A stretch of 64,000 bases of DNA. Source: Patescibacteria group bacterium. GTDB taxonomy: Bacteria > Patescibacteriota > Microgenomatia > Levybacterales > UBA12049. The stretch is from the NCBI GenBank assembly GCA_038062115.1, contig JBBTXS010000007.1, forward strand, positions 5,448 through 69,447, read 5' to 3'. How positions within the stretch are numbered: position 1 is the stretch's first letter; each line of letters opens with the position of its first letter. Below are positions 1-60,757 of the stretch, piece by piece. The translations under genes were made by a program, and so were the position numbers. Under the pieces are notes generated by a model. That model did not search any database. It had not been told where the DNA came from and saw only the letters and a program-made list of their open reading frames with translations.

Positions 1-633
1 CCTGATAAATATACTTCTTCCCATCATTTAGTTAAAACCTCTTATGGGTACCAACTGGGTGTTGCTAAGAACAATGGTTTAGAAACAACCAATCTTGCAA
101 CATTCTGTGGCGCAGGAGGTATAGATAATTGTACTTTATCTCCTAGTCTAGCACACGATATTTATCTAGCAGATGGCAATCTAAATCTTAACTCATACAC
201 GTTTCCTAGTGGGCAAAACTATGTAATCCTTGTTAATGGAAACTTAAGAATATTTGGAAACATAAACATTCCAGTTGGTTCAACCGCTACCTTCTCTGTT
301 TGGGGAAATATCTATGTAGCTAAGACTGTTGGAGAAACAGATCATTCAAAAACTACAACTACTATTAATGGTTTCTACTCTACAGACAAAAGCTTTATAG
401 TAGAAGGAACTAATGATTGTAGTATAGGAGTAGATAAGAGATTAAATATTGGAGGATCGGTAGTAGTAAACGCAGGTTTACTAGGAGGATCATTCCAAAA
501 CCAAAGAGACATTTGTGGAGGAAACATAAACTACCCAAGTGTTTATTTTACAGAGAGACTTGATCTAATACTCAATGCCCCACGCATTATTCAACACGCA
601 ACTAAAACATACAGAGAAGTCCCGCCGAAGTAA
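1..633 (+). CDS. hypothetical protein, C-terminal part (ORF runs off the left edge)
   Basis: Own translation: frame 1 is stop-free from base 1 to TAA 631-633 (...GQNYVILVNGNLRIFGNINIPVGSTATF...FYSTDKSFIVEGTNDC...). No family recognised. Confidence 0.45.
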   Translation, partial: PDKYTSSHHLVKTSYGYQLGVAKNNGLETTNLATFCGAGGIDNCTLSPSLAHDIYLADGNLNLNSYTFPSGQNYVILVNGNLRIFGNINIPVGSTATFSVWGNIYVAKTVGETDHSKTTTTINGFYSTDKSFIVEGTNDCSIGVDKRLNIGGSVVVNAGLLGGSFQNQRDICGGNINYPSVYFTERLDLILNAPRIIQHATKTYREVPPK

Positions 634-669
634 GGCTAAGGCAAATTTTATCATTGTGATATAGTTTAA

Positions 670-1554
670 GTGATGCCTTCTCAAAAACCACATTATCAGC
701 ACTTAAGAGATAAATGGACAGCCCGACATAGGGAATTGCAAGGAACGCTTTGGAGTAAGCATAAAGATTCACTTAGCTGGTTGGTGGATAAGTCAAAACA
801 ATTGGCAATTGGTTCTTCTTTGGGAGGGCTAATTATTTTTGGATTACCTCAAGTTCAACCTGTTTCTACCTCTAATTCTTTAACATTTAATGAGCAAATA
901 GCTCAAGATATAGACAAAAGTGTTTTTTTAATTTCAGACCTTTATAATGTTTTGCCAAAAGAAGTAAAGCCTTTAACATTTGGCGAAGAACAAAAAATTT
1001 CGGACATAATCTTTAGAAGTTTTGGCATTAAAGCAACGGCAGTATTTAATGGTAGAAAGCTTAATAGGAGTTATGGACTGATAGGTTTAGAGCAACATTT
1101 AGCGCGTTTTCCTGGAGATAATATGTATTCACATTTTGGTACTCAAGAGGAAGCGAAAAAGTTTTGGTCATCTGGCATGGCGCCTGGTGTTGGAGCATGG
1201 GGTTACTTTGCGCCGTCGAAAGATAAGCTTTTCGAAAAAGATAAATTGCGAGAAAAATATTACATTGCAGTACAAACTTTTTTAGCACCCGGATTTAATG
1301 AACACTTTGCTAAGTTTCGAGATTTTTTTAAATACAGAAAAATGTTGGTGGTTAACCCAAACAACGGAAAGGCAGTTGTTGCTGTAATTGGTGATGCAGG
1401 GCCTGCAGAGTTTACCGGTAAGCACATTGGAGGATCGCCAGAAGTTATGCATTATTTAGAGCGGGTTGATGGATCGCTAAAAGGACCGGTTATTTACTTT
1501 TTTATCGATGATCCAAATGATACAATTCCTTTAGGACCAATTGCCTTATCTTAA
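670..1554 (+). CDS. membrane-anchored hypothetical protein; C-terminal region weakly RlpA/DPBB-like
   Basis: ORF track 294 aa. Hydrophobic segment LAIGSSLGGLIIFGL. KMLVVNPNNGKAVVAVIGDAGPAEFTGKHIGGSPEVMHYL resembles a double-psi beta-barrel motif (by eye only). Confidence 0.5.
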   Translation: MMPSQKPHYQHLRDKWTARHRELQGTLWSKHKDSLSWLVDKSKQLAIGSSLGGLIIFGLPQVQPVSTSNSLTFNEQIAQDIDKSVFLISDLYNVLPKEVKPLTFGEEQKISDIIFRSFGIKATAVFNGRKLNRSYGLIGLEQHLARFPGDNMYSHFGTQEEAKKFWSSGMAPGVGAWGYFAPSKDKLFEKDKLREKYYIAVQTFLAPGFNEHFAKFRDFFKYRKMLVVNPNNGKAVVAVIGDAGPAEFTGKHIGGSPEVMHYLERVDGSLKGPVIYFFIDDPNDTIPLGPIALS

Positions 1555-3064: not shown

Positions 3065-4264
3065 CTATTTTCTAATAAATAAAACCGCGTTTGGGATATT
3101 GCGGCCCGGACCAACTTTGTAGCCGTTGTACCAAAGGGCAGTAGAGCCACCATCATCAAGATTAAGTGCATTTTCAAGTCCAAGCGCTTTTAATGCGTGT
3201 GCAGCTTCCGCCACCGTTGCGTTGTGAACCACGCCTATATATGCGCTACTCCCCTTATTTCCTACAAAACTTCTTCCACCCTTGCTTCCTTTCTTGGGAT
3301 CACCATCTCCTCCAAAGATAATATTTCCTTTAGAGAGTAGTAATCCTTGGTTAGCAATCACTGCATTTACTCCAGTATCTCTCCCCCATTCTAAAGATTG
3401 ACCTCTTATTCCGGCAGAATTACCGGAGAAATATATAAGCGGAATGGTGCTATATTTATTGTTATCAGAATTAAAGTAAACTTTATTTTTATTCATAAGA
3501 AGAATATCAAAAGAATTTGCCTTGCCAGCACAAGTTGGGTATGATGCTGGGCAAAAGTACGATCCATTTACACCTCCATAAGCATTGCTTCTTGAGGCAT
3601 ACTCGCTTAGAGATAAGACTGGGCAATTGTCGCGACAGTCGGAGTCGGATGCTGTATCTACAATTACTCGAGTCGAATTTAGATCGGCTGTAATAATGTC
3701 AACCAAGAATGTGCCTATATCGGCTTTTACTTGTTGGCGGCTGTATCCTGAGGCAGGCGGCAAATTTTTGGTTGGAACATTTTGAGGAATAACAAATTGA
3801 GATACAAGTTTTTCTTGCTGTTGCCTTATCTGATTGTTAAGGCTTTCTAACAAGGCTTCCGAGGAAGCGTAATTTCGCTGTGAAAGTAAAACAATAGCAT
3901 CTGTAAAAAGGTTATCAAATTTTTCGGTTTTTTTGTCAATTTCTTTTAAAGACAAGAGTTTTTCGTAAGAGTCAACTCCTTTTTTGTAGGTTTTTTGGAT
4001 ATTGTCAATTTCTTCTTGAAGATTTTTATTATAAACGAATTGATCTTGCGTCTTTAAAAACTTTAGTTCTTTTTGCACAACTTCAAGGGCATTTTCTGCA
4101 CTTTGTTTTTGTGTAGTTAGAAGTGCAATTTGAGATTTTGTGCTTTTTATGTAACTAACTAAGAAAGACGCCAACACAACTAAGGCTATGCTTGCAATAA
4201 TAAAGTAGGTAGTAAAATATGGGTTTTTAACAACAGTTTTTGTAAGATGCGAAATTAAAGTCAT
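3065..4264 (-). CDS. phosphodiester glycosidase (DUF2233/NAGPA-like) family protein with N-terminal TM and coiled coil
   Basis: ORF track 399 aa. C-terminal LNLDDGGSTALWYNG motif is typical of the family. N-terminal TM helix. Confidence 0.65.
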   Translation of the reverse strand: MTLISHLTKTVVKNPYFTTYFIIASIALVVLASFLVSYIKSTKSQIALLTTQKQSAENALEVVQKELKFLKTQDQFVYNKNLQEEIDNIQKTYKKGVDSYEKLLSLKEIDKKTEKFDNLFTDAIVLLSQRNYASSEALLESLNNQIRQQQEKLVSQFVIPQNVPTKNLPPASGYSRQQVKADIGTFLVDIITADLNSTRVIVDTASDSDCRDNCPVLSLSEYASRSNAYGGVNGSYFCPASYPTCAGKANSFDILLMNKNKVYFNSDNNKYSTIPLIYFSGNSAGIRGQSLEWGRDTGVNAVIANQGLLLSKGNIIFGGDGDPKKGSKGGRSFVGNKGSSAYIGVVHNATVAEAAHALKALGLENALNLDDGGSTALWYNGYKVGPGRNIPNAVLFIRK

Positions 4265-4310
4265 GTTCTATAATTTAACATGTTAAACAAGAATAGAAAT
4301 GTCCGCTTTT

Positions 4311-4413
4311 TTGTCATTCCGAGTGCAGTGAAACGGAGTCGAGGAATCTCTCTCAACAGGCTCAGGTCAAACAGATCCCTCCACTCCGCTATCGCTACGG
4401 TCGGGATGACAAA
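4311..4413. repeat. TGTCAT...ATGACA hairpin repeat, copy in a divergent intergenic region
   Basis: TTGTCATTCCGAGTGCAGTGAAACGGAGTCGAGGAATCTC...GGTCGGGATGACAAA. Flanked by an 18-bp perfect IR at 4287-4304 / 4442-4459. Confidence 0.75.
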
Positions 4414-4515
4414 CCATGTAACTTATTGTGTCTCTTAAATAGGACATTTCTATTCTTGTCTGACAGTTCTATATTTAACATATCACACGTAATCAATATT
4501 TGCTACAATAGCTTT

Positions 4516-6354: not shown

Positions 6355-6377
6355 CTATTCAGTTCTTACCAACGGAT

Positions 6378-6447
6378 TTGTCATTGCGAGCGTAGCGAAG
6401 CAATCTCATGAGATCGCCACGGCTACTTCGTAGCCTCGCGATGACAG
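6378..6447. repeat. TGTCAT...ATGACA hairpin repeat
   Basis: TTGTCATTGCGAGCGTAGCGAAGCAATCTCATGAGATCGCCACGGCTACTTCGTAGCCTCGCGATGACAG. Outer IR at 6357-6371 / 6453-6467. Confidence 0.75.
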
Positions 6448-6563
6448 CTTACTGGTAAAAACTGAATACTTACCCATTTTCTGCTTGACATAATGTACAT
6501 AATTCTGTAATATTTATCCAGGACCTTTCAAAACCCCGCAGAAAAAAGGTGCTGGATTTACCT

Positions 6564-10614: not shown

Positions 10615-11466
10615 ATGCTCAGGCAGGTATTTATTCTTATATTTCTCATATTTTTATTTATTTTATTTCATAAGCCTGCATTTGCCGCATTAACCATCAC
10701 AGATGTTTCCCCTGTAAGTATAAGTTCACCAGAAAATGTTATTACCATAACAGCAACGGCATCTGGTCTTCAGAACACAACTCAATACCTACAAGTAGGG
10801 TTAACCAAAGGAGGAGAAGTATCTAATTACTTTGGTTTTACTAAAAATCAAAGTGAGGAATGGTTTAAGTATAAATCTTTGCCCTCGCCTTCGGATCTAA
10901 GTTCATATTTTTATAAATTTACTCCCGTAGGCGGCGCGTGGTCTGGTCAAATACTTGCTAAAGTTGATATAGAAGATACTGGCTATAAGGGTTCGGGAAA
11001 TTACACAATAAAATTAATTAAATATATAACCTCATCGGCTTCGTATTCATCAAATTCAGCTACAATTACAGTCAATATTGCTCCAACATCTACACCTATT
11101 CCGACAAATACGCCAACACCATCACCTACAAATACACCTGTTCCGACAAAAACACCTACGCCCTCTCCTACAAAATCTCCAACTCCTACACTAAAACCAA
11201 CGTCTGCGCTTGTTATTCCAACAAGCATAGAGCCAACGGATGAAGCTATACCAACATCGGTGTTGGGCGAGAGTACGGAAAGCGAAATTAAAGAGGATGA
11301 CAAACCCTCCAAAACAAAACCCGTTGAAGAAGCAAAAATATTGGGAATTCAAGCTGATAATCTCTCGAAAATTCTGATAAGTATTGGAGCTATTCTTCTT
11401 CTTGCTTGTGGTATACTCATTTTTCGAACCTATATGAGAAGCAAAAAAGATAGCGGAGAAGTCTAG
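10615..11466 (+). CDS. secreted Pro/Thr-rich surface protein with C-terminal membrane anchor
   Basis: Signal peptide MLRQVFILIFLIFLFILFHKPAFA. PT linker PTSTPIPTNTPTPSPTNTPVPTKTPTPSPTKSPTPTLKPT. C-terminal TM plus a basic tail. Confidence 0.6.
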   Translation: MLRQVFILIFLIFLFILFHKPAFAALTITDVSPVSISSPENVITITATASGLQNTTQYLQVGLTKGGEVSNYFGFTKNQSEEWFKYKSLPSPSDLSSYFYKFTPVGGAWSGQILAKVDIEDTGYKGSGNYTIKLIKYITSSASYSSNSATITVNIAPTSTPIPTNTPTPSPTNTPVPTKTPTPSPTKSPTPTLKPTSALVIPTSIEPTDEAIPTSVLGESTESEIKEDDKPSKTKPVEEAKILGIQADNLSKILISIGAILLLACGILIFRTYMRSKKDSGEV

Positions 11467-11490
11467 AGCTCATTTCAAAACTTCCCCATC

Positions 11491-11546
11491 GTGTCATTCC
11501 CAGCTTGACTGGGAATCTAGATTCCCGCTTTCGCGGGAATGACGTG
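11491..11546. repeat. TGTCAT...ATGAC hairpin repeat (two-hairpin short form)
   Basis: GTGTCATTCCCAGCTTGACTGGGAATCTAGATTCCCGCTTTCGCGGGAATGACGTG. Outer IR at 11463-11487 / 11548-11568. Confidence 0.75.
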
Positions 11547-11574
11547 AGGGTTTTGAAATAGCTTCTAGTTAAAC

Positions 11575-13066: not shown

Positions 13067-13906
13067 ATGAGGGATTTATTTCATCATCTCCTTGTTCCCA
13101 ACCATACTAATAATTTTCGAGCAAAGCTTTTGCACCATAAGAATATATTGTTGGCTACCTTACTTCTCTTTTTTGGTGGTTTGTTTCTTTCTATAATAAG
13201 AACTAATTATCCGTCTGTCCTTGGTGTATCTGTTGATATTCAGGTTCAAAAGCTTTTGCTATTGACCAATAAAGAGAGGCAGGAGAATAACCTTTCTCCT
13301 CTAACTTTAAACCCCAAACTATCCTTAGCAGCAGCAAAAAAAGCAGAAAACATGTTTGAGCAAAACTATTGGGCTCATAATTCTCCAGATGGTAAAACGC
13401 CATGGGTCTTTATAAGAGATGCTGGATATAATTATATTTATGCGGGTGAAAACTTAGCAAGAGGATTCGATACGGCTGATAAGGTTGTAGGTGCATGGAT
13501 GGCAAGTCCCAAGCACAGGGCAAATGTTCTCTCGGAAAACTTTAGAGAAGTTGGGTTTGCTGTAAAAAAGGGTAAACTAAATAATGAGGAGACTGTATTG
13601 GTAGTTGAAGAATTTGGAGATCAAGGCGTAGTTGGGAGGCAGGAAGTTTCTTCAAGTACCGATAATGCCTTGAGCCAAGCATTTTCGGAGACTAATGGCT
13701 ATAACTCTTTTATAAAAAGCTTATCTTTAACCTTGAGTGTTGATAAAATAATATTATCTGTTTTCATATTAGTTTTAATATTGGATATGGTAGTTGTAGA
13801 AAGAAAAAGAATTATTCGATTTGTAGGGCATAATATAGACCATATATTCTTTCTGGTGCTTGTACTATTAATTATTGGCGTTTTGAGTAAAGGAGCAATT
13901 CTTTAA
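13067..13906 (+). CDS. CAP/SCP (YkwD-like) domain protein with membrane segments
   Basis: YWAHNSPDGKTPW...AGENLARG...WMASPKHRANVL motifs. Confidence 0.7.
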   Translation: MRDLFHHLLVPNHTNNFRAKLLHHKNILLATLLLFFGGLFLSIIRTNYPSVLGVSVDIQVQKLLLLTNKERQENNLSPLTLNPKLSLAAAKKAENMFEQNYWAHNSPDGKTPWVFIRDAGYNYIYAGENLARGFDTADKVVGAWMASPKHRANVLSENFREVGFAVKKGKLNNEETVLVVEEFGDQGVVGRQEVSSSTDNALSQAFSETNGYNSFIKSLSLTLSVDKIILSVFILVLILDMVVVERKRIIRFVGHNIDHIFFLVLVLLIIGVLSKGAIL

Positions 13907-32395: not shown

Positions 32396-33312
32396 AATCT
32401 TGTTTTATCAGCTATATATAAAAAATAATCTTCAAGAGTTGGCTTCTCAATACTTATTTCATCGTAATAAATTTTTTTACTCGTTAAATCTCGTAAAAAT
32501 TCAGGGATATTTTTTTCTTTTACATCAACAATTAAGTATCGGCCTTGAATTTTAAATGAGAAATTTTTTTCTTTGCAAAGCTCAATTATGTTTTTGAATC
32601 CATCGCTGATTAAGAGTTCTATATGGGACGTCTTAATCGATTTAGCAAGATTTTTTGGTATGTCATCTGCAATAATTTCTCCCTTGTTGATAAATATGAC
32701 TCTATCGCATACTTCCTCAACCTCGGCCATATTGTGAGAAGTAAGGATAATAGAGACTTTAAATTCTTTCTGTTGGTTTAACAAGAAATCACGGATATAG
32801 CGTGCTATATCTGGGTCTAGTGATGCAGTTGGTTCATCTAAAAGCAAAATTTTTGGAAAGTTAAGGAACGCTTTTGCTAAGTTGACTCTAGTAAGCTGTC
32901 CTGATGAAAGCTCATGAATTTGTTTGTTTATAAGCTCGCTAAGTCTAAATATTTCTTCAATCTTTCGTAACCTTGATCTTCGATCATTAATTATATATAG
33001 GTAAGACATGTAAGTTAAAACTTCTCTAACGGTTAAGTTCCATGGGAAATTAGTATAGCTAGAAGAAAAGTTTACCTGCTCAAGAATCTCTTCGCGATTT
33101 TCAGTTAGTTTTTTATCAAAATATTTTATATCGCCCGATGTCGGCGTTAGGACTCCGAGCAGCATTTGAATTGTCGTAGTTTTTCCGGCACCGTTTGGGC
33201 CTAAAAGACCAAGAATCTCTCCTTCTTTTAGAGAAAAAGAAATGTTATCAACTGCTGTGAATTCGCCGAATTTTTTGGTGAGATTTTTTACTTCTAAAAT
33301 TTGATTACTCAT
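32392..33312 (-). CDS. ABC transporter ATP-binding protein
   Basis: GPNGAGKTT, LSSGQLTR, LLLDEPTASLD. The real start is MSNQILEV at 33312. The ORF track extension to 33345 reads into a half hairpin repeat. Confidence 0.85.
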   Translation of the reverse strand: MSNQILEVKNLTKKFGEFTAVDNISFSLKEGEILGLLGPNGAGKTTTIQMLLGVLTPTSGDIKYFDKKLTENREEILEQVNFSSSYTNFPWNLTVREVLTYMSYLYIINDRRSRLRKIEEIFRLSELINKQIHELSSGQLTRVNLAKAFLNFPKILLLDEPTASLDPDIARYIRDFLLNQQKEFKVSIILTSHNMAEVEEVCDRVIFINKGEIIADDIPKNLAKSIKTSHIELLISDGFKNIIELCKEKNFSFKIQGRYLIVDVKEKNIPEFLRDLTSKKIYYDEISIEKPTLEDYFLYIADKTRL

Positions 33313-33313
33313 T

Positions 33314-33347
33314 TTGTCGTTGCGAGGAACGAAGTGACGAAGCAATC
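33314..33347. repeat. half copy of the hairpin repeat
   Basis: TTGTCGTTGCGAGGAACGAAGTGACGAAGCAATC, similar to the left half of copy 34798..34879. Confidence 0.55.
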
Positions 33348-33350
33348 TTT

Positions 33351-33768
33351 TTACTTGATTAGATTTATGTGCAAATCATTAAATGACGAATTATCTTTTC
33401 TAATAAGCTCAAGCTTCTTTATTCGTGAACCCGCTTTAATTTGTTTTTCTCTTCGTATAGCTTCATATATTGTATCAAATATTTCAAGATATACTAGCTT
33501 AGTTACATTATGACTGGGTCATAATTGTCATTTCGAGCTTGCCGAGAAATCTCCTTCAAAGAGATTCCTCGACTCGCTACACTCGCTCGGAATGACAAAT
33601 GAGTATTTATGTCCCAGTCACAGTTACATTATAGCGTGAAGTAAAACTAGATACCATTTTGTCTTTATGTTCGTACATGCGTCTTATTAGATTATTAGTG
33701 ACGCCTGTATATAAGACAGTATTTGTAAAATTCGTAGCAATATACACAAAATATTTTCTTGTATACAT
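33351..33768 (-). pseudogene. GIY-YIG nuclease (UPF0213-like) gene split by a 111-bp MITE
   Basis: The N-part MYTRKYFVYIATNFTNTVLYTGVTNNLIRRMYEHK...SRYNVT ends in the insert. The C-part KLVYLEIFDTIYEAIRREKQIKAGSRIKKLELI...HINLIK* (own translation, stop 33351-33353) resumes in a frame shifted by 1. Removing 121 bp restores one 98-aa ORF. Confidence 0.75.
33511..33621. mobile_element. MITE copy with TIRs and 10-bp target-site duplication
   Basis: TSD AGTTACATTA at 33501-33510 and 33622-33631. TIR TGACTGGGTCATAA (33511-33524) versus TTATGTCCCAGTCA (33607-33620), 13/14 complementary. The core is TTGTCATTTCGAGC...GGAATGACAAA. Confidence 0.8.
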
Positions 33769-33785
33769 TTTTATTGTTTCTTTAA

Positions 33786-33817
33786 GATTGCTTCGCTTCG
33801 GAGCTCGCAATGACAAA
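33786..33817. repeat. half copy of the hairpin repeat
   Basis: GATTGCTTCGCTTCGGAGCTCGCAATGACAAA. This is the right-half type. Confidence 0.55.
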
Positions 33818-33821
33818 TGGA

Positions 33822-35270
33822 TTAAGATATAATTTCTTTTATTCTCTCAAGCAAATACTCCTTATTATTTTTGGATAAATCTTCATCAACCTCTTCAAAA
33901 AGTTTTTGTAAAATTTCGCCAACTTTTGGTCCAGGTTTGATATTTAGCTCTTTCATAATATCGTTTCCATCAACTGAAAGGTCGTTGATAGAAAAAGGCG
34001 CTGGCTTTAATTGCTCTTCTATTCTTTTTTTGAAAAGTTTTAGTCTCCAACTTTCGGCAGTTTGAGTTCCTCCTCCTAGCCTATCGCCAATTCTTAAATC
34101 CATCATGTCTTTTACGCTCGTAATCCCTACTCTTCGAATAAATCTTCTAACTGCCGCATCTGTTATTTTTTCATCCACAGTAAACATATGCCAGCGTATA
34201 AGATTAACTATTTTATCGCGGTCTTTTCTTGAGAATCTTAGTCTATTGCATATTTCACCCACCATGTGCGCTCCTACAATTTCGTGGTTATGAAATATCA
34301 CAAGGCCCTTTTCATCCTTTTTTTCAACCTTTGGTTTCCCAACATCATGAAGAAGAGTCGCGAATCTAACGATTGGATCAACTGATGGGCAGAATTTTAA
34401 AGAAAGGATGTTATGCATGAAGACGTCAGATGTATGGTGTCTGCCGGGACGAACTTGCGAAACCCCAATTCCTTCCAAAAGTTCTGGCAGAATGTATTGT
34501 AAAAGAGAAGAGTTTTTTAGAAGCATTATTCCGTCGTATGGATGCTTGCTTGCTAAGATTCTTAATAGCTCAATTCTTACTCTTTCTCCGGAAATTTCTC
34601 TGATAAGCTGAGCATCGGAAATAATTTCTTCCCAAGTTTTGTTCTCGATAGTAAAACCGTGTTCGGTTGCAATTCTTATTGCCCGAATAAGCCTTAATGC
34701 GTCTTCTTTGAATCTTTGTTTTGGATCTCCAACGGAGCGAATAATTTTGTCTTTAATATCTTGCTGACCGCCAAAAGGATCAACAATAATACTTTTATTG
34801 TCATTGCGAGGAACCCGCTGAGCGGGTGACGAAGCAATCCCATCCTTCGGAGATTGCTTTGCTTTGCTCGCAATGACAGAGGCTGTATATTCAATTTTTA
34901 GTGCTATGGCGTTGACAGTAAAGTCGCGGCGAGATAGATCTTCTTCGATAGATTTTCCCCACTTAACGATCTTAGGATGTCTTCTATCAAAGTATTCGTG
35001 CTCGGTTCTAAACGTTGTAACTTCGACAGTATGCTTTTTTCCAAATAGCTCTACTGGAATGCCAACAGTTCCAAATTTGTTGTCATAAAACCCATTAGGA
35101 AAAAGATTTAGTATTTGTTCCGGAGTTGCATTTGTTGTAAAGTCCCAATCTTTAATCTCCTTTTCCATCAAAAGATTTCGGACACAACCACCAACAAAAT
35201 AAACTTCAAAACCAGCATCTTGGAATTTGTTATAAATTTCTAAAATTTCCTTTGGAATATGTTCAGTCAT
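33822..35270 (-). CDS. cca: CCA-adding enzyme / tRNA nucleotidyltransferase with HD domain
   Basis: GGCVRNLL, DWDFTT, RRDFTVNA, LLHDVGKP motifs. Contains one in-frame repeat insertion. Confidence 0.85.
   Translation of the reverse strand: MTEHIPKEILEIYNKFQDAGFEVYFVGGCVRNLLMEKEIKDWDFTTNATPEQILNLFPNGFYDNKFGTVGIPVELFGKKHTVEVTTFRTEHEYFDRRHPKIVKWGKSIEEDLSRRDFTVNAIALKIEYTASVIASKAKQSPKDGIASSPAQRVPRNDNKSIIVDPFGGQQDIKDKIIRSVGDPKQRFKEDALRLIRAIRIATEHGFTIENKTWEEIISDAQLIREISGERVRIELLRILASKHPYDGIMLLKNSSLLQYILPELLEGIGVSQVRPGRHHTSDVFMHNILSLKFCPSVDPIVRFATLLHDVGKPKVEKKDEKGLVIFHNHEIVGAHMVGEICNRLRFSRKDRDKIVNLIRWHMFTVDEKITDAAVRRFIRRVGITSVKDMMDLRIGDRLGGGTQTAESWRLKLFKKRIEEQLKPAPFSINDLSVDGNDIMKELNIKPGPKVGEILQKLFEEVDEDLSKNNKEYLLERIKEIIS
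34798..34879. repeat. hairpin repeat inserted in frame inside cca
   Basis: TTGTCATTGCGAGGAACCCGCTGAGCGGGTGACGAAGCAATCCCATCCTTCGGAGATTGCTTTGCTTTGCTCGCAATGACAG. Read as ...SVIASKAKQSPKDGIASSPAQRVPRND... on the minus strand. Confidence 0.75.
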
Positions 35271-35350
35271 ATCTGTTATAGTATAACAGAAGGGGTTAAG
35301 TTCTGAAATGATTTAACTTTAAACGACGGCCGTCGAAAGAAATTAAATGT

Positions 35351-37120
35351 ATGAAGGGGTGGAAAATCATTAGTGAATCGGGAATAAAGAATCAGGAATC
35401 AGGCATTAAGGACTTGATAGAAATTTTATTAAGCAATAGAGGGCTAAAGACAAAAAAGGAAATAGAAGAGTTTTTAAATCCTAAATTGGAAAATGTAACA
35501 ATTAAGAATGTTGGGATCGATAAAAGACAACTTCGGAAAACAATTGGGAGAATTCAAAAATCCATAAAAAATAAAGAGAAAATTGTTGTTTTTGGCGACT
35601 ATGATGTGGATGGGATTTGCGGATCAGCAATTCTTTGGGAAACTCTTAATGGTTTGGGAGCAAGTGTTATGCCGTATATACCGCATAGGATGGATGAAGG
35701 ATACGGGCTTTCTATGAAAGCAATTCAAAATTCAGAATTCAGAATTCAGAATATCAAATTGATTATAACAGTAGATAATGGAATTGTTGCAAATGAGGCG
35801 GTTAAATATGCTAAAGATCAAGGTATTGATGTTATTATTACCGATCACCATGTTCCATCTAAGAAACTTCCCGATGCTTTTGCTATAGTTCACACGACAA
35901 AACTTTGTGGAGCAGGAGTTGCTTGGGTTCTCTCTTCTGTCATTCTGAATTCATTTCAGAATCTCAATATTTTGGAGAACAAGACCCTGAAACAAGTTCA
36001 GGGTAACAATAATAAAAATAATCTTTTAGAATTGGTAGCACTTGCTACGATTGCAGATCTTGTTTCTCTTTTGGGAGCAAATAGAATACTTGTTAAGTTT
36101 GGACTTGAAGCCCTCCGAAGAACAAAAAGGGTTGGTCTTTTGGAGCTATTAAAAGAAGCAGTATTGGAAAAAGATAAAATTGGAGTTTATGAAATAGGAC
36201 ATATAATTGCGCCAAGATTAAATGCAATGGGGCGATTAGAGTATGCAATGGATAGTTTAAGGTTATTATGTACAAAAAACAGAGACAGAGCAAGAATGTT
36301 GGCTCAAACTTTAGGAAGTACAAATAGGGAGCGACAGGCACGGACATTAACTACTGTTAAGCATGCAAAATCAGCAATTCAGAATTCAGAATTCAGAATT
36401 CAGAATTTATTGTTTGTTGCACACGAGAGTTATCAACAAGGGGTTATTGGGCTAGTTGCTGGGAAATTGGTAGAAGAATATTATCGACCTACAATTGTAG
36501 TTTCAAAAGGAGAGATTTACAGCAAGGCATCAGCTAGATCAATTAACGGTTTTAATATTATTGAATTTATACGAAGTGCATCTGAATATTTAGTGGATGC
36601 TGGGGGCCATCCAATGGCTGCTGGTTTTACAGTTGAAACTTCTAAACTTGCTTTAGTTCAGAAAACTCTCGAGAATAAAGCAGAGTCTTTACTTGACGAG
36701 GAAAAATTGACAAGAACTCTTAGGATTGACTGTGAGCTAGATTTATCATTAGTAAACAATAAGTTATATGACGCAATTCAAAAACTTGCACCTTTTGGAA
36801 TGGGGAATCCTGAACCAACGTTTGTTGGTAGAGGCGTTGAGATTCAAGATATAAGAACTGTTGGAAGAGAAGCAAAGCATTTAAAGCTGCAATTAGTGTG
36901 TCATCCTGAGGCTTTAGCCAAAGGATCTCATGAGATTCTTCGCTTCGCTCAGAATGACAAGGGAATGATTGATGGGATTGCGTTTGGGATGGGAGAGAAG
37001 TATTCTCAATTTCATGTTGGGGATGCGGTTGATATAGCTTATACGGTTGATGAAAATAAGTGGAATGGAAATAAAAAGTTGCAGTTAAAGATAAAGGATT
37101 TAAAGCTATCGAGGTCTTGA
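35351..37120 (+). CDS. recJ: single-stranded-DNA-specific exonuclease RecJ
   Basis: FGDYDVDGICG, IITVDNG, ITDHH, GGHPMAAG motifs. Four repeat-derived in-frame insertions. Confidence 0.85.
   Translation: MKGWKIISESGIKNQESGIKDLIEILLSNRGLKTKKEIEEFLNPKLENVTIKNVGIDKRQLRKTIGRIQKSIKNKEKIVVFGDYDVDGICGSAILWETLNGLGASVMPYIPHRMDEGYGLSMKAIQNSEFRIQNIKLIITVDNGIVANEAVKYAKDQGIDVIITDHHVPSKKLPDAFAIVHTTKLCGAGVAWVLSSVILNSFQNLNILENKTLKQVQGNNNKNNLLELVALATIADLVSLLGANRILVKFGLEALRRTKRVGLLELLKEAVLEKDKIGVYEIGHIIAPRLNAMGRLEYAMDSLRLLCTKNRDRARMLAQTLGSTNRERQARTLTTVKHAKSAIQNSEFRIQNLLFVAHESYQQGVIGLVAGKLVEEYYRPTIVVSKGEIYSKASARSINGFNIIEFIRSASEYLVDAGGHPMAAGFTVETSKLALVQKTLENKAESLLDEEKLTRTLRIDCELDLSLVNNKLYDAIQKLAPFGMGNPEPTFVGRGVEIQDIRTVGREAKHLKLQLVCHPEALAKGSHEILRFAQNDKGMIDGIAFGMGEKYSQFHVGDAVDIAYTVDENKWNGNKKLQLKIKDLKLSRS
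35722..35752. repeat. tandem AATTCAG heptamer array (about 4.4 units) inside recJ
   Basis: aattcaaaattcagaattcagaattcagaat, encoding AIQNSEFRIQN. Confidence 0.8.
35938..36009. repeat. hairpin repeat inserted in frame inside recJ (72 nt)
   Basis: TGTCATTCTGAATTCATTTCAGAATC...CCCTGAAACAAGTTCAGGGTAACAA, encoding VILNSFQNLNILENKTLKQVQGNN. Confidence 0.7.
36376..36407. repeat. second tandem AATTCAG heptamer array (about 4.5 units) inside recJ
   Basis: aattcagaattcagaattcagaattcagaatt, again encoding AIQNSEFRIQN. Confidence 0.8.
36899..36960. repeat. hairpin repeat inserted in frame inside recJ
   Basis: TGTCATCCTGAGGCTTTAGCCAAAGGATCTCATGAGATTCTTCGCTTCGCTCAGAATGACAA, encoding CHPEALAKGSHEILRFAQNDK. 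Confidence 0.7.
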
Positions 37121-40872: not shown

Positions 40873-40886
40873 AACTTAAATACTAA

Positions 40887-40971
40887 TTTGTCATTCCGAG
40901 CGAGCCAAGTCTGACTTGGCGAGTCGAGGAATCTCTTTGCAGGGGATTTCTCGACAAGCTCGAAATGACAA
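40887..40971. repeat. hairpin repeat, close relative of the 33511..33621 MITE core
   Basis: TTTGTCATTCCGAGCGAGCCAAGTCTGACTTGGCGAGTCGAGGAATCTCTTTGCAGGGGATTTCTCGACAAGCTCGAAATGACAA. Also shares flanking AAATACT.A and ATTAT with the 33.5-kb copy. Confidence 0.8.
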
Positions 40972-41023
40972 TTATTCCCAATCATACCTTGAGTATAGGG
41001 AAAAGTTGAGGTACAATGCAAGT

Positions 41024-42256
41024 ATGATTAGAGTAAGAATAGCGCCAAGTCCAACAGGCATTCCTCATATTGGCAATACAAGAACTGCACTTTTTAATTA
41101 TTTGTTTGCTAGACGCAATAAGGGTAAATTTATTTTGCGTATAGAAGATACCGATCAAAAAAGGGTCGTTCCTGGTGCAGAAGAGGCAATTTATGAAATT
41201 CTTGAATGGTTGGGATTACATGTTGATGCGAAATTTAAACAATCAGAAAGGCTAGATCTCTACAAAGAAGCCTCACAGATTTTGCTTAGACAAAAAAATG
41301 CGCGAATGGAGGAAGGTGCAGTTCGATTCATTGTTCCAAAGGGACGGGTTATCGAGTGGGTAGACATGGTTGGCAATAAGAATATTTCATTCAAAAGTGA
41401 CGATATCGAAGATTTTATTGTTCTTAAATCCGATGGTTATCCAACGTACCATTTAGCAAATATAGTTGATGATCATTTAATGGAGATATCTCATGTTATA
41501 CGAGGGGACGAATGGATTTCTTCAACCCCCAAACATATTTTGCTTTATGAATCTTTAGGCTGGGATCAGCCTATATTTGCCCACCTTCCTGTTATTTTAG
41601 GTCCAGATAAAACTAAATTATCTAAACGACACGGTGCCAAATCGGTTCTTGATTATAGAAATGAAGGAATTCTTAAAGAAGCGCTTTTAAATTTTATGGC
41701 TTTTTTGGGCTGGGCGACTAAGGGAGACAAAGAAATATTGTCAATTGCTGAGATTATAGCTCTTTTTGACTTGAAAGATGTAAATACAAATCCTCCAATT
41801 TTTAATATCGATAAACTTTTGTGGTTTAATGGCCATTATATTCGAACAATGCCTGTTCACAAATTAGTATCAAGCATTAAGCATCAGGTATTAAACATGA
41901 GGGATAAAGATAATGAATTGATTAAAAAAATTGTTCCTTTAGCTCAAACACGCATGAAAACGTTGAAAGATTTTGTTCAACTCGCAGCACATTTTTTTGA
42001 AGAGCCAAAGACAGAGTTAAGTCAGAAAGAGAAAATGATTGCAGACCAACTTACAAAGCGTTTTTCAACAATGGAACAATGGAACAATGGAACAATTCTT
42101 GTAGCAATAAAAAATGTTATGGCAAGCGAGAATGTACGAATGCCAATTATTTACAAAATAATCACTGGTCAAGATAGGGGTTTACCACTGCCCGAGTCAA
42201 TTGAGATTTTAGGAAAAGAGAAAACTTTAGAAAGACTTAAAAGATTAATATCATGA
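41024..42256 (+). CDS. gltX: glutamyl-tRNA synthetase
   Basis: RIAPSPTGIPHIGNTR (HIGH) and KLSKRHG (KMSKS). The ORF track start 40916 (TTG) lies inside a hairpin repeat; the real ATG is at 41024. Confidence 0.9.
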   Translation: MIRVRIAPSPTGIPHIGNTRTALFNYLFARRNKGKFILRIEDTDQKRVVPGAEEAIYEILEWLGLHVDAKFKQSERLDLYKEASQILLRQKNARMEEGAVRFIVPKGRVIEWVDMVGNKNISFKSDDIEDFIVLKSDGYPTYHLANIVDDHLMEISHVIRGDEWISSTPKHILLYESLGWDQPIFAHLPVILGPDKTKLSKRHGAKSVLDYRNEGILKEALLNFMAFLGWATKGDKEILSIAEIIALFDLKDVNTNPPIFNIDKLLWFNGHYIRTMPVHKLVSSIKHQVLNMRDKDNELIKKIVPLAQTRMKTLKDFVQLAAHFFEEPKTELSQKEKMIADQLTKRFSTMEQWNNGTILVAIKNVMASENVRMPIIYKIITGQDRGLPLPESIEILGKEKTLERLKRLIS

Positions 42257-58865: not shown

Positions 58866-58962
58866 GAGCGAGGCCGAAGGCCGAGCAATATAAAATAGTA
58901 GGAGCGGAAGCGACTACCGCTTTAGAATAAAAGAGGTTCGAATTTTTTCGTATAGGTCTACT
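58866..58962 (-). repeat. inverted copy of arm W plus core (hybrid junction B)
   Basis: The reverse complement reads CAGTAGACCTATACGAAAAAATTCGAACCTCTT...ATTTTATATTGCTCGGCCTTCGGCCTCGCTC. Continuous with the X arm at 58958-59056. Confidence 0.8.
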
Positions 58963-59056
58963 GAAACAGATTTCTCTGAAGCCAGAGCTGGGGAGGTCGG
59001 GGCAGAAGGGCGGGAATGGAGCTCCGCAAAGCCCAATTTGAAAGAAACGGAAAGCT
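58958..59056 (-). repeat. left copy of a 99-bp perfect inverted repeat (arm X)
   Basis: Exact reverse complement of 60515-60613 by manual comparison. Imperfect homology extends about 20 nt further (59057-59073 vs 60494-60514). Confidence 0.85.
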
Positions 59057-59106
59057 ACCGGTAAAAAGAAGTGAAAAAACGCAAAAATTAAGGAACAAGA
59101 ACTACT

Positions 59107-60723
59107 ATGAAATATATAGCATATTGCAGGAAATCAACGGACGAGAAAAACAAACAAGTTCTCTCGATTGACCAGCAAATAGCAGAATTAAAAGAATTTG
59201 CTACCAGAGAACATTTAGAAGTAGTTGATTTTGTAACAGAAGCAAAAACTGCAAAAGTTCCGGGGAGAGAAAAATTCGCGCAGGTTTTAAAAAGAATAGA
59301 AAAAGGAGAAGCTCAGGGAGTTGTCTCATGGCATCCGGACCGTCTGGCAAGAAATTCTATCGACGGCGGAAAAGTTATTTATCTTTTAGATACCGGAAAA
59401 CTTTTGGACTTAAAATTTCCGTCTTTCTGGTTTGAAAGTACTCCTCAAGGAAAATTCATGTTGTCAATCGCATTTGGACAATCCAAGTATTACGTTGATA
59501 ATCTTTCCGAGAATGTTAAAAGAGGCATGAAACACAAGCTACGTGTCGGTTTATGGCCGTTAAAAGCTCCTTTAGGATACATAAATGATTCGAACACAAA
59601 AACAATTCAAATACATCTGGAAACCTCTCGGATTATAAAGAAAGCATTCCAGCTTTTTGCAGAAGGTAATAAATCCTTCAGAGAGATATCTCTTTTTCTT
59701 AGTAAATTCAAAATTGATCGAGGATGGAAAGGTAAAGACGATAGGCCATTTCGTATAACACGAATTAAGAACATGTTTACAAACAGATTTTACATCGGAA
59801 TTATGAAGTACAACGGTGAATACTATCAGGGATCGTATAAATTATTCATTACGAAGAAATTATTTGACGAAGTTCAAAAGCAAGTAGACCGAATAGAGAG
59901 ACCAAGATATAGAGGGCATAATTTTGCATTTAGCGGATTTGCGCGTTGCGGAGAATGCAAAGCTTCTATTACATCAGAACAACACTTAAAGAAATATAAA
60001 AATGGAACTTCCCAGACGTTTATGTATTACCGCTGTACAAAAAAATTAAAACCCTGTACTCAAAAATATGTTACGGAGGATAAATTAGAAAATCAGATAA
60101 GGGAAATGCTGGAAAAAGTATCGTTTCCGCAAGAATGGGCTGCTGATTGGTATAGTTGGTTAGACAGAGACGAAAAAGAAGAATTAACTGTAGCCGAGGA
60201 TAATATTGGAAAGTTAAGGGTTGAAGTGGAAAAAGTAGACAAAAGACTGAATTTTCTTTTGGATAGTTTTCTTGATCAAGTTATTGATTCCGAGATTTAC
60301 AAGAAAAAGAAGAACGAATTATTCGAAGAAAAATTAAAAATAACTGAGGAAATTGAAAAAATAAAAGAGAGTGGCTCAAGTTGGCTCGAACCTATGAGAG
60401 AGTTCGTAGATAGGGCTCTGCAGAGCCAAAAAATCGCACGTGCAAAAAATACAAAAGAAGATTTGGCAATCTTCGCAAAAACTGTCGGCTCGAACTTCTT
60501 TTTAACCGATCGGCAGCTTTCCGTTTCTTTCAAATTGGGCTTTGCGGAGCTCCATTCCCGCCCTTCTGCCCCGACCTCCCCAGCTCTGGCTTCAGAGAAA
60601 TCTGTTTCAGTAGCCCCAAGGGGAGTCGAACTCCTGCCTGCGGCAAGCGAAGGACCGATCTTCACCTTAACCTGCCCGCCGCTTGTGCCCCCAAGGGGAT
60701 TCGAACCCCTGTTACAAGGTTGA
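59107..60723 (+). CDS. large serine recombinase
   Basis: Resolvase catalytic start YCRKSTDEKNKQVLSIDQQ...VSWHPDRLARN, recombinase domain, zinc ribbon CGECK...YYRCTKK, coiled coil. The last ~70 codons read through arm X, a pseudo-tRNA and into antisense tRNA-Glu, so the true C-terminus is uncertain. Confidence 0.85.
   Translation: MKYIAYCRKSTDEKNKQVLSIDQQIAELKEFATREHLEVVDFVTEAKTAKVPGREKFAQVLKRIEKGEAQGVVSWHPDRLARNSIDGGKVIYLLDTGKLLDLKFPSFWFESTPQGKFMLSIAFGQSKYYVDNLSENVKRGMKHKLRVGLWPLKAPLGYINDSNTKTIQIHLETSRIIKKAFQLFAEGNKSFREISLFLSKFKIDRGWKGKDDRPFRITRIKNMFTNRFYIGIMKYNGEYYQGSYKLFITKKLFDEVQKQVDRIERPRYRGHNFAFSGFARCGECKASITSEQHLKKYKNGTSQTFMYYRCTKKLKPCTQKYVTEDKLENQIREMLEKVSFPQEWAADWYSWLDRDEKEELTVAEDNIGKLRVEVEKVDKRLNFLLDSFLDQVIDSEIYKKKKNELFEEKLKITEEIEKIKESGSSWLEPMREFVDRALQSQKIARAKNTKEDLAIFAKTVGSNFFLTDRQLSVSFKLGFAELHSRPSAPTSPALASEKSVSVAPRGVELLPAASEGPIFTLTCPPLVPPRGFEPLLQG
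60515..60613 (+). repeat. right copy of the 99-bp perfect inverted repeat (arm X + core AGTAG), inside the recombinase 3' end
   Basis: AGCTTTCCGTTTCTTTCAAATTGGGCTTTGCGGAGCTCC...CAGAGAAATCTGTTTCAGTAG. Confidence 0.85.
60614..60645 (-). other. degenerate tRNA-Glu-like 3' fragment (T arm + acceptor)
   Basis: The minus strand GCAGGCAGGAGTTCGACTCCCCTTGGGGCTA resembles the tRNA-Glu 3' end GTAACAGGGGTTCGAATCCCCTTGGGGGCA. No matching 5' acceptor strand. Confidence 0.45.
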
Positions 60724-60757
60724 GAACCTTGCGTCCTAACCGCTAGACGATAGGGGC
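60686..60757 (-). tRNA. tRNA-Glu (anticodon CTC), no encoded CCA
   Basis: Hand-folded: GCCCCTA/TGGGGGC acceptor, CAAGG-TTCTCAA-CCTTG anticodon arm, AGGGG-TTCGAAT-CCCCT T arm. 72 nt. Confidence 0.85.

Follow-up and report, generated by a model that had tools for sequence, protein, structure and literature searches.

A small inverted-repeat element, very probably a recently inserted MITE, interrupts a GIY-YIG nuclease gene enclosed by hairpin-repeat halves in a Patescibacteria genome

Insertion sequences of the IS4 family (IS50/Tn5, IS10 and IS231) are flanked by target duplications of 9-13 nt, and their ends start (C)TGA; the outer end of IS50, CTGACTCTTATACACAAGT, is an example. Free-standing GIY-YIG homing endonuclease genes include the seg genes of phage T4 and those of I-TevI-like enzymes. 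Rickettsia palindromic elements and the small dispersed repeats of cyanobacteria nest in one another and can lie in frame in genes; to our knowledge, neither has been linked to a GIY-YIG gene. Bacterial MITEs are represented by Correia in Neisseria, Nezha in cyanobacteria and MITEAba12 in Acinetobacter (PMC6382973, PMC10969869, PMC11602168). In REP/REPIN systems with their RAYT genes, a genome contains many copies of a short palindromic repeat, and a small nuclease-type gene lies between inverted repeat units (PMC3116915, PMC2817692, PMC3337134).

How does the locus described here compare with these systems? Within the window (the whole 64-kb stretch of Patescibacteria DNA that was analysed), a gene for a small GIY-YIG nuclease is split by an insert that resembles the bacterial MITEs in many respects: it is ~110 nt long, is non-coding, carries terminal inverted repeats and flanking duplications, exists in near-identical copies, is inserted both between genes and within one, and folds along its whole length into a hairpin. 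It differs from those MITEs in that a parent insertion sequence was not found, in that its interior is a copy of a separate and very widespread hairpin-repeat family, in that its duplication, at 10-12 nt, exceeds the usual length for MITEs of bacteria, and in its host, a Patescibacteria (CPR) genome. The element end, (G)TGACTGGGACATAAATACT, resembles the IS50 outer end at 9 of 19 positions, a similarity that we take as a lead and not as a classification; unlike for the IS4 family, no IS4-type transposase was found in the sequences searched.

The insert is bordered by a direct repeat, AGTTACATTA, which a repeat search extends to the 11-nt AGTTACATTAT (33501-33511 and 33622-33632). Read in gene orientation, the element consists of GTGACTGGGACATAAATACTCATT, the hairpin core and ATTATGACCCAGTCA. 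Its outer arms are the sole such inverted pair in the window, even with two mismatches allowed. These terminal inverted repeats measure 14-15 nt, read 5'-(G)TGACTGGGNCATAA, and sit at the very ends of the segment that is delimited by the empty site described below. Between the right arm and the direct repeat lies an extra C (33621), which is present in all three known copies of the element; this additional G/C leaves the ends not perfectly symmetric and counts against an explanation of the insert as a MITE. The first-pass annotation had located both copies of AGTTACATTA, with a 111-nt element between them, and had described the ends as 13/14 complementary; all of its positions are correct, and the complementarity holds for TGACTGGGTCATAA against TTATGTCCCAGTCA. 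Its assignment of the core to a hairpin family is likewise borne out, as 33525-33599 belongs to the TGTCATTNCGAG...CTCGNAATGACA family. What it called a 10-bp target-site duplication is a real duplication, the length of which is 10-12 nt across copies and not strictly 10.

Table 1. Coordinates of the interrupted gene, the insert, the flanking hairpin-repeat halves and the further copies of the element. Positions refer to the window, except for L011 and L015, where they refer to the respective locus. The copies are compared in a common orientation, GTGACTGGGACATAAATACTCATT...ATTATGACCCAGTCA.
Feature	Position	Strand	Remarks
GIY-YIG gene, 5' part	33622..33768	minus	Codons 1-49 (MYTRKYF...SRYNVT); fragment matches Pfam PF01541, E=6.5e-8
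GIY-YIG gene, 3' part	33351..33510	minus	Codons 50-98 (KLVYLEIF...HINLIK) and stop codon 33351-33353
Target-site duplication, copy 1	33501..33510	.	AGTTACATTA; 11 nt if T33511 is included
Target-site duplication, copy 2	33622..33631	.	AGTTACATTA; 11 nt if T33632 is included
Inserted element (probable MITE)	33511..33621	minus	111 nt, or 110 nt if the duplication is 11 nt
Outer terminal inverted repeat, one arm	33511..33524	.	TGACTGGGTCATAA; 13/14 complementary to 33607-33620
Outer terminal inverted repeat, other arm	33607..33620	.	TTATGTCCCAGTCA; 13/14 complementary to 33511-33524
Hairpin-repeat core of the element	33525..33599	.	TTGTCATTTCGAGC...GCTCGGAATGACAA; inverted pair and family arm matches
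Hairpin-repeat half upstream of the GIY-YIG start codon	33784..33818	.	Gene orientation TTGTCATTGCGAGCTCCGAAGCGAAGCAATCTT
Hairpin-repeat half downstream of the GIY-YIG stop codon	33313..33350	.	Gene orientation AAAGATTGCTTCGTCACTTCGTTCCTCGCAACGACAAA
Element, window copy	33511-33621		Reference; inside GIY-YIG gene; duplication (common orientation) TAATGTAACT
Element, L011 copy	615-725		100% identical; between stop codon and ATG of next gene; duplication TATTTATAGT
Element, L015 copy	13368-13478	opposite orientation	One mismatch (99% identical); intergenic, after a TATAAT-like box; duplication TAGTTAGAGTT
Diverged fourth relative	40874-41004		81-83% identical; between the start of a minus-strand gene (40872) and gltX

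As DNA, the whole element folds into one long hairpin of -28.4 kcal/mol (z=-7.9 against shuffles). It has no coding capacity: the ORFs inside are spurious (25-31 aa), and a protein search with its single open frame, which would reveal miscalled ORFs at other copies, returned no match. Rfam matched no RNA family on 33000-35400, and nothing in a promoter and terminator scan of the locus exceeded the shuffled expectation. Two additional AGTTACATTA sites in the window (32069 and 48567), set in surroundings otherwise unlike the GIY-YIG locus, were rejected as related sites and look like chance occurrences in an AT-rich genome.

Removal of 33511-33631 (121 nt) yields an ORF of 98 codons, MYTRKYF...HINLIK, with the full protein sequence MYTRKYFVYIATNFTNTVLYTGVTNNLIRRMYEHKDKMVSSFTSRYNVTKLVYLEIFDTIYEAIRREKQIKAGSRIKKLELIRKDNSSFNDLHINLIK followed by the stop codon. 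Residues 5-75 align colinearly with positions 1-73 of the 78 in the Pfam GIY-YIG profile (PF01541, E=3.9e-15), at 56.4 bits compared with a curated cut-off of 22.6, and the reconstruction together with this match upholds the proposal of the first-pass annotation that a 121-bp deletion restores a GIY-YIG/UPF0213 frame. The nearest solved structure is 1ZG2, the UPF0213 protein BH0048 (E=0.002); no NCBIfam family scored over its cut-off. The core motifs YFVYI, LYTGVT, RR at 29-30 and E67 in REKQIK are present in the reconstructed protein and in its homologues, and from knowledge of the family we take these Tyr and Arg residues and the metal-binding Glu to have their usual catalytic roles. A search with the reconstructed protein retrieved 7992 homologues, mostly of 95-99 aa, the best of which (P0001) covers 100% of the query at 96% identity and spans the junction as ...SRYNVTKLVYLEIF... 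/ ...SSFTSRYNVTKLVYLEIFDT..., so that the two halves align colinearly to a single homologue and the best match crosses the junction as had been predicted. Judged by its sequence, the gene is a member of the GIY-YIG superfamily, among the UPF0213-like small proteins.

The interrupted frame reads ...RYNVT-VTGT: it enters the element and stops four codons on. Since the resulting 53-residue fragment lacks the conserved Glu67 of the REKQIK motif, which is encoded by the 3' part of the gene, the nuclease is almost certainly dead; the insertion, which adds 121 nt and shifts the frame so that it is lost after residue 49, almost certainly inactivates it. Might the insert be tolerated instead, with full-length protein made by translational bypassing, a hop between the identical ...AATGTAACT sites as in phage T4 gene 60, where 50 nt are bypassed? 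In favor of this, the take-off and landing sequences on either side of the insert are identical, the frame meets a stop codon four codons past the first site, and the insert is a strong hairpin. We find this scarcely credible, however, because 121 nt is far beyond any translational bypass known to us, because the matching sites are fully accounted for by target duplication and are found at both intergenic copies too, and because there is no sign of selection for bypassing.

An empty site is available for comparison. Contig L003 (Logan SRR22388340), from another sample, holds the orthologous syntenic locus at ~97% nucleotide identity. It shares with the window both the flanking repeat halves and, upstream, the end of the CCA-adding-enzyme gene. 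Its alignment with the window has a gap of precisely 121 nt; ATAATGTAACT is there once, and the GIY-YIG ORF, the one that encodes P0001, is uninterrupted. The uninterrupted allele for which the first-pass annotation had suggested a search thus exists, with the junction as predicted, and its single repeat copy and clean 121-nt gap dispose of the concern that the repeat was part of a longer, older duplication. The ORFs of the two alleles differ at eight positions, four of them synonymous and four nonsynonymous. Apart from the insert, the interrupted gene is free of further frameshifts and stop codons, which fits a recent event. The identical interrupted allele is found in three independent assemblies, one NCBI genome assembly and two ENA assemblies, and the window sequence is present in Hainich H51 0.1-µm groundwater samples and in NCBI assembly GCA_964361775.1. 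An allele that is base-for-base identical in separate assemblies is not an assembly artefact.

Two alleles alone give no direction to the change in an alignment, and recombination between direct repeats of 10-11 nt can delete such an insert exactly. One might thus reverse the order of events, making the interrupted allele the older one in the lineage and the L003 allele the product of precise excision between the direct repeats. This we regard as very improbable: the 7992 homologues speak against the intact allele being the derived state, and as thousands of them are uninterrupted at this point, an insertion had to come first anyway. Moreover, the copies of the element are 99-100% identical, which points to recent spread. 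Given this identity and a gene that is otherwise undamaged, the sequences date the insertion as recent.

Further copies were sought by scanning metagenome contigs for both terminal repeats. Two more were found, both on Hainich contig ERZ1292623.186 from the same aquifer and at unrelated sites; the copy in L011 is bordered on both sides by ACTATAAATA. In all three copies an A precedes the duplication, and the element likewise ends in A; because this one base is ambiguous between element and duplication, the arrangement can be read as a duplication of 10-11 nt with a 111-nt element or as one of 11-12 nt with a 110-nt element. The three targets are AT-rich and the duplications all start ATA.T. 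Two near-identical copies at unrelated sites, each with its own duplication, imply recent transposition. The near-identical copies known thus number three, all from one aquifer, a small number that counts against the MITE reading. In the diverged fourth relative, the right outer end is kept (ATTAT-TCCCAATCATA) and the left outer end is unrecognisable; a possible decayed duplication, TACTTAGAG / TACCTTGAG, can be seen there, and the probable start of gltX is at 41025.

The window, the fetched loci, 185,579 species-representative genomes, viral contigs and plasmids yielded neither an autonomous element nor a transposase that has these ends, and this too counts against the MITE reading. The terminal repeat is absent from the rest of the 64-kb window and from the 14-kb L015 locus; both terminal repeats used as a pattern had no match in the 185,579 species-representative genomes, terminal-repeat searches of viral contigs gave nothing, and neither did blastn of the element against plasmids. 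A relaxed right-junction pattern retrieved only unrelated half-hairpins from Verrucomicrobia and Oscillatoriales, at loci with no GIY-YIG gene, and was discarded. Several metagenome matches (L008/L010/L013, L009/L012 and L014) were also rejected as copies; they share the end motif only and are unrelated. The search for partners of the terminal repeats, as earlier suggested, has therefore supplied two additional copies, and no transposase with matching ends in the sequences searched.

The element has inserted and duplicated its target, it has recently spread in multiple copies, and the reading frame of the nuclease gene has been lost. It is small and non-coding, and has terminal repeats, copy-specific duplications and homogeneous copies at unrelated sites, as MITEs do. 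We therefore consider it highly probable that a non-autonomous MITE inserted recently into the conserved ...RYNVT/KLVY... segment of the gene for the 98-aa GIY-YIG nuclease. In such an event, a transposase supplied in trans would recognise and bind the outer repeats, and its cuts in the two strands of the AT-rich target would be offset by roughly one helical turn; gap repair would then duplicate 10-12 nt of the target. The added 121 bases put the gene out of frame, with a stop after four codons and a 53-residue fragment without Glu67. The TG...CA-like ends (TGACTGGG...CCCAGTCA) and the near-constant length of the staggered duplication make a DDE-type transposase the most likely enzyme. Because the duplications bound the outer repeats and not the hairpin-family sequence, it is the composite, hairpin-carrying element that transposes and not hairpins in general; the hairpin core may be a passenger. 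The earlier proposal that a subfamily of the hairpins transposes stands to this extent, that a composite element with a hairpin moves; the mobile unit itself is set by outer repeats from outside the family.

The hairpin family is abundant in its own right. Thirteen arm matches to TGTCATTNCGAG...CTCGNAATGACA occur in the window, compared with 0.77 expected. About eight hairpin-repeat copies are spread over the 64 kb, and one lies in frame within an essential gene. This complete hairpin (34799-34878) lies in frame in the CCA tRNA nucleotidyltransferase gene (minus-strand ORF 33822-35270), to which it adds ~27 residues (...SVIASKAKQSPKDGIASSPAQRVPRNDNK...). Hairpin copies in the window other than the core of the inserted element have quite different outer inverted repeats and, except for the copy at 4312-4411, no flanking duplication. 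The latter copy is part of a second hairpin-cored element (4281-4465; with flanks, 4264-4481) in a divergent intergenic region. The outer inverted repeats of this second element, TGTYARACAAGAATAGAAATGTCC (4281-4309 and 4437-4465), measure 24-29 nt and bear no relation to the ones of the element studied here; it is bordered by a direct repeat of 15-16 nt, GTTCTATAATTTAACA / GTTCTATATTTAACA. No further copy of it was found in the window or the fetched loci. Its structure suggests that hairpin cores repeatedly end up in other small inverted-repeat elements. Hairpin copies at 6356-6468 and 11465-11570 are each contained in a unique outer inverted repeat of their own (TATTCAGTTNTTACCA and CTAGAGCTCATTTCAAAAC, respectively), with no flanking direct repeat visible at either.

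Hairpin halves also affect gene calls. ORF lists prolong the ABC ATPase (MLRHFVPRNDK-MSNQ...; 33301-33345) and gltX (MASRGISLQGISRQARNDN...; 40916-41024) upstream through such halves, and repeat-derived N-terminal extensions are likewise seen in public gene calls of GIY-YIG homologues. Outside the window, half-hairpins of the same family (...GATTGCTTCGTTCCTCGCAATGACAATTATNACCCAA) form tandem arrays in Oscillatoriales (L007 4150-4430 and L005 7250-7410) and are single in Udaeobacter (Verrucomicrobia; L004 and L006); with representatives in cyanobacteria and Udaeobacter, the family spans distant phyla. A separate inverted repeat in the window, 106 nt long and 98% complementary (58955-59060 and 60511-60616), brackets most of ORF 59107-60723, the 538-aa product of which looks by sequence like a putative large serine recombinase; a tRNA-Glu(CTC) gene on the opposite strand (60685-60757) overlaps the end of this ORF. 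The 58955-60616 region could be either an invertible segment or an element that has integrated.

The interrupted nuclease gene is itself enclosed by two halves of a family hairpin. In gene orientation, the unit reads TTGTCATTGCGAGCTCCGAAGCGAAGCAATCTT, 16 nt, ATG ... TAA, AA and AGATTGCTTCGTCACTTCGTTCCTCGCAACGACAA; without the MITE it measures 385 bp and exactly spans the distance from the stop codon of the CCA-enzyme gene to the start codon of the ABC ATPase gene. Within the window, the hairpin at 34799-34878, 1 kb off, matches the joined arms of the unit best (62/73 positions). DNA surrounding ten more homologues was retrieved, giving eleven independent loci together with the window locus; the split-hairpin layout is present in eight of them, the window and seven others. 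In those seven, the left half ends ...AATCT a few bases before the ATG, and the right half, which starts ...(A)GATTGC, lies at the stop codon or directly after it. They belong to Daviesbacteria (L016), Curtissbacteria (L020), Woesebacteria (L026), Berkelbacteria (L027), another Patescibacteria genome (L036), the cyanobacterium Microcoleus (L032, with two halves per side) and Ignavibacteria (L035). At the loci of WWE3 (L029), Bacteroidota (L033) and Melioribacter (L024/L025), there are hairpins no more than 150 nt away, but the gene is not enclosed. The genes neighbouring the unit are different in every lineage. A neighbourhood conserved by vertical descent was rejected: the adjacent ABC ATPases of the window and L016 are only 27% identical, and the neighbours vary. 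Of 18 homologues called with N-terminal extensions, eleven read through a left half (giving peptides such as ...RSNL, APRND and HCE). The hairpin arms are of two module types, which can lie either way round with respect to the gene. A comparison of the two hairpin halves of each GIY-YIG locus for co-variation gave no signal on the diagonal, and no presence/absence pair for the unit was found among the loci examined.

Could the element, then, have been moved by the machinery of the hairpin family itself, that is, by the small GIY-YIG nuclease inside the split hairpins? In this scheme the nuclease would nick both strands ~10-11 nt apart, hairpin-shaped DNA would be inserted, and the system would have hit itself. 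The core of the element does belong to the repeat family that supplies the halves on either side of GIY-YIG genes at eight of eleven loci, the entire element forms one hairpin, and no transposase was found in the sequences searched; in addition, the 4281-4465 element, with its different outer repeats, has a 15-16-nt direct repeat, which is unlike the fixed length expected of one transposase. Set against this, ordinary hairpin copies lack flanking duplications, and the duplications that do exist border the outer repeats, which are outside the hairpin family. Known GIY-YIG endonucleases cleave with a stagger of a few bases, not 10-12, and the sole GIY-YIG gene in the window is the broken one. 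We hold this explanation to be unlikely, and favor insertion of a MITE by a transposase acting in trans.

The split-hairpin layout suggests a REP/RAYT-like or a homing link, in which mobilisation is only a lead. As in REPIN/RAYT systems, the gene lies between inverted halves at eight of eleven loci. Unlike in those systems, the enclosed gene encodes a GIY-YIG nuclease and not an HUH/Y1 (IS200/IS605-like) transposase, so that the unit is not a member of that group; the repeat sequence is unrelated to the GTAG/CGTC-tagged REPs, and mobilisation of hairpins by the GIY-YIG protein is a lead only. The nuclease gene occupies a precise position in a recognisable DNA site, as homing would give and as in free-standing GIY-YIG homing genes. 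Unlike the products of such genes, the window protein has 98 aa and no DNA-binding domain, its closest solved structure is the UPF0213 protein, and a group I intron endonuclease model matched the reconstructed protein at E=0.006 only, below the cut-off. The in-frame position of hairpin 34799-34878 within the CCA-adding enzyme gene recalls Rickettsia palindromic elements; the sequences are unrelated to those elements and to the cyanobacterial dispersed repeats, and the hosts are different. Tentatively, and with rather more doubt than conviction, we propose that the TGTCATTGCGAG...CTCGCAATGACA hairpins are gene-less partners or homing sites of a mobile unit of ~385 bp, a GIY-YIG gene in a hairpin. 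No literature linking GIY-YIG genes to palindromic repeats, or describing the repeat motif in bacteria, was found in the full texts searched.

A gene killed by a MITE is routine biology, and the present case is a clean and well demonstrated one, useful and unsurprising. Its main value comes from an element that is active in a Patescibacteria genome and from the association of the hairpin family with a gene for a small GIY-YIG nuclease. The recently active MITE, with its empty site, belongs to a genome of the Patescibacteria (CPR), a group in which little mobile-element activity has been described. The hairpins recur in distant phyla and in most of the loci examined enclose a tiny GIY-YIG nuclease gene at the tip. 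If the proposed partnership is true, Patescibacteria, cyanobacteria and Ignavibacteria would possess a GIY-YIG-based counterpart of REPIN/RAYT, and the MITE would have disabled the sole nuclease gene of this kind seen in the 64-kb window. Should the nuclease spread or maintain the repeats, this would explain a very common class of bacterial repeat, and many spurious "...RSNL / ...RND" gene-call extensions with it. The split-hairpin context may be a new form of the repeat-plus-nuclease theme, for now a lead only; if true, a large family of small GIY-YIG proteins, so far uncharacterised, would gain a function, and a new partnership of nuclease and repeat would be defined.
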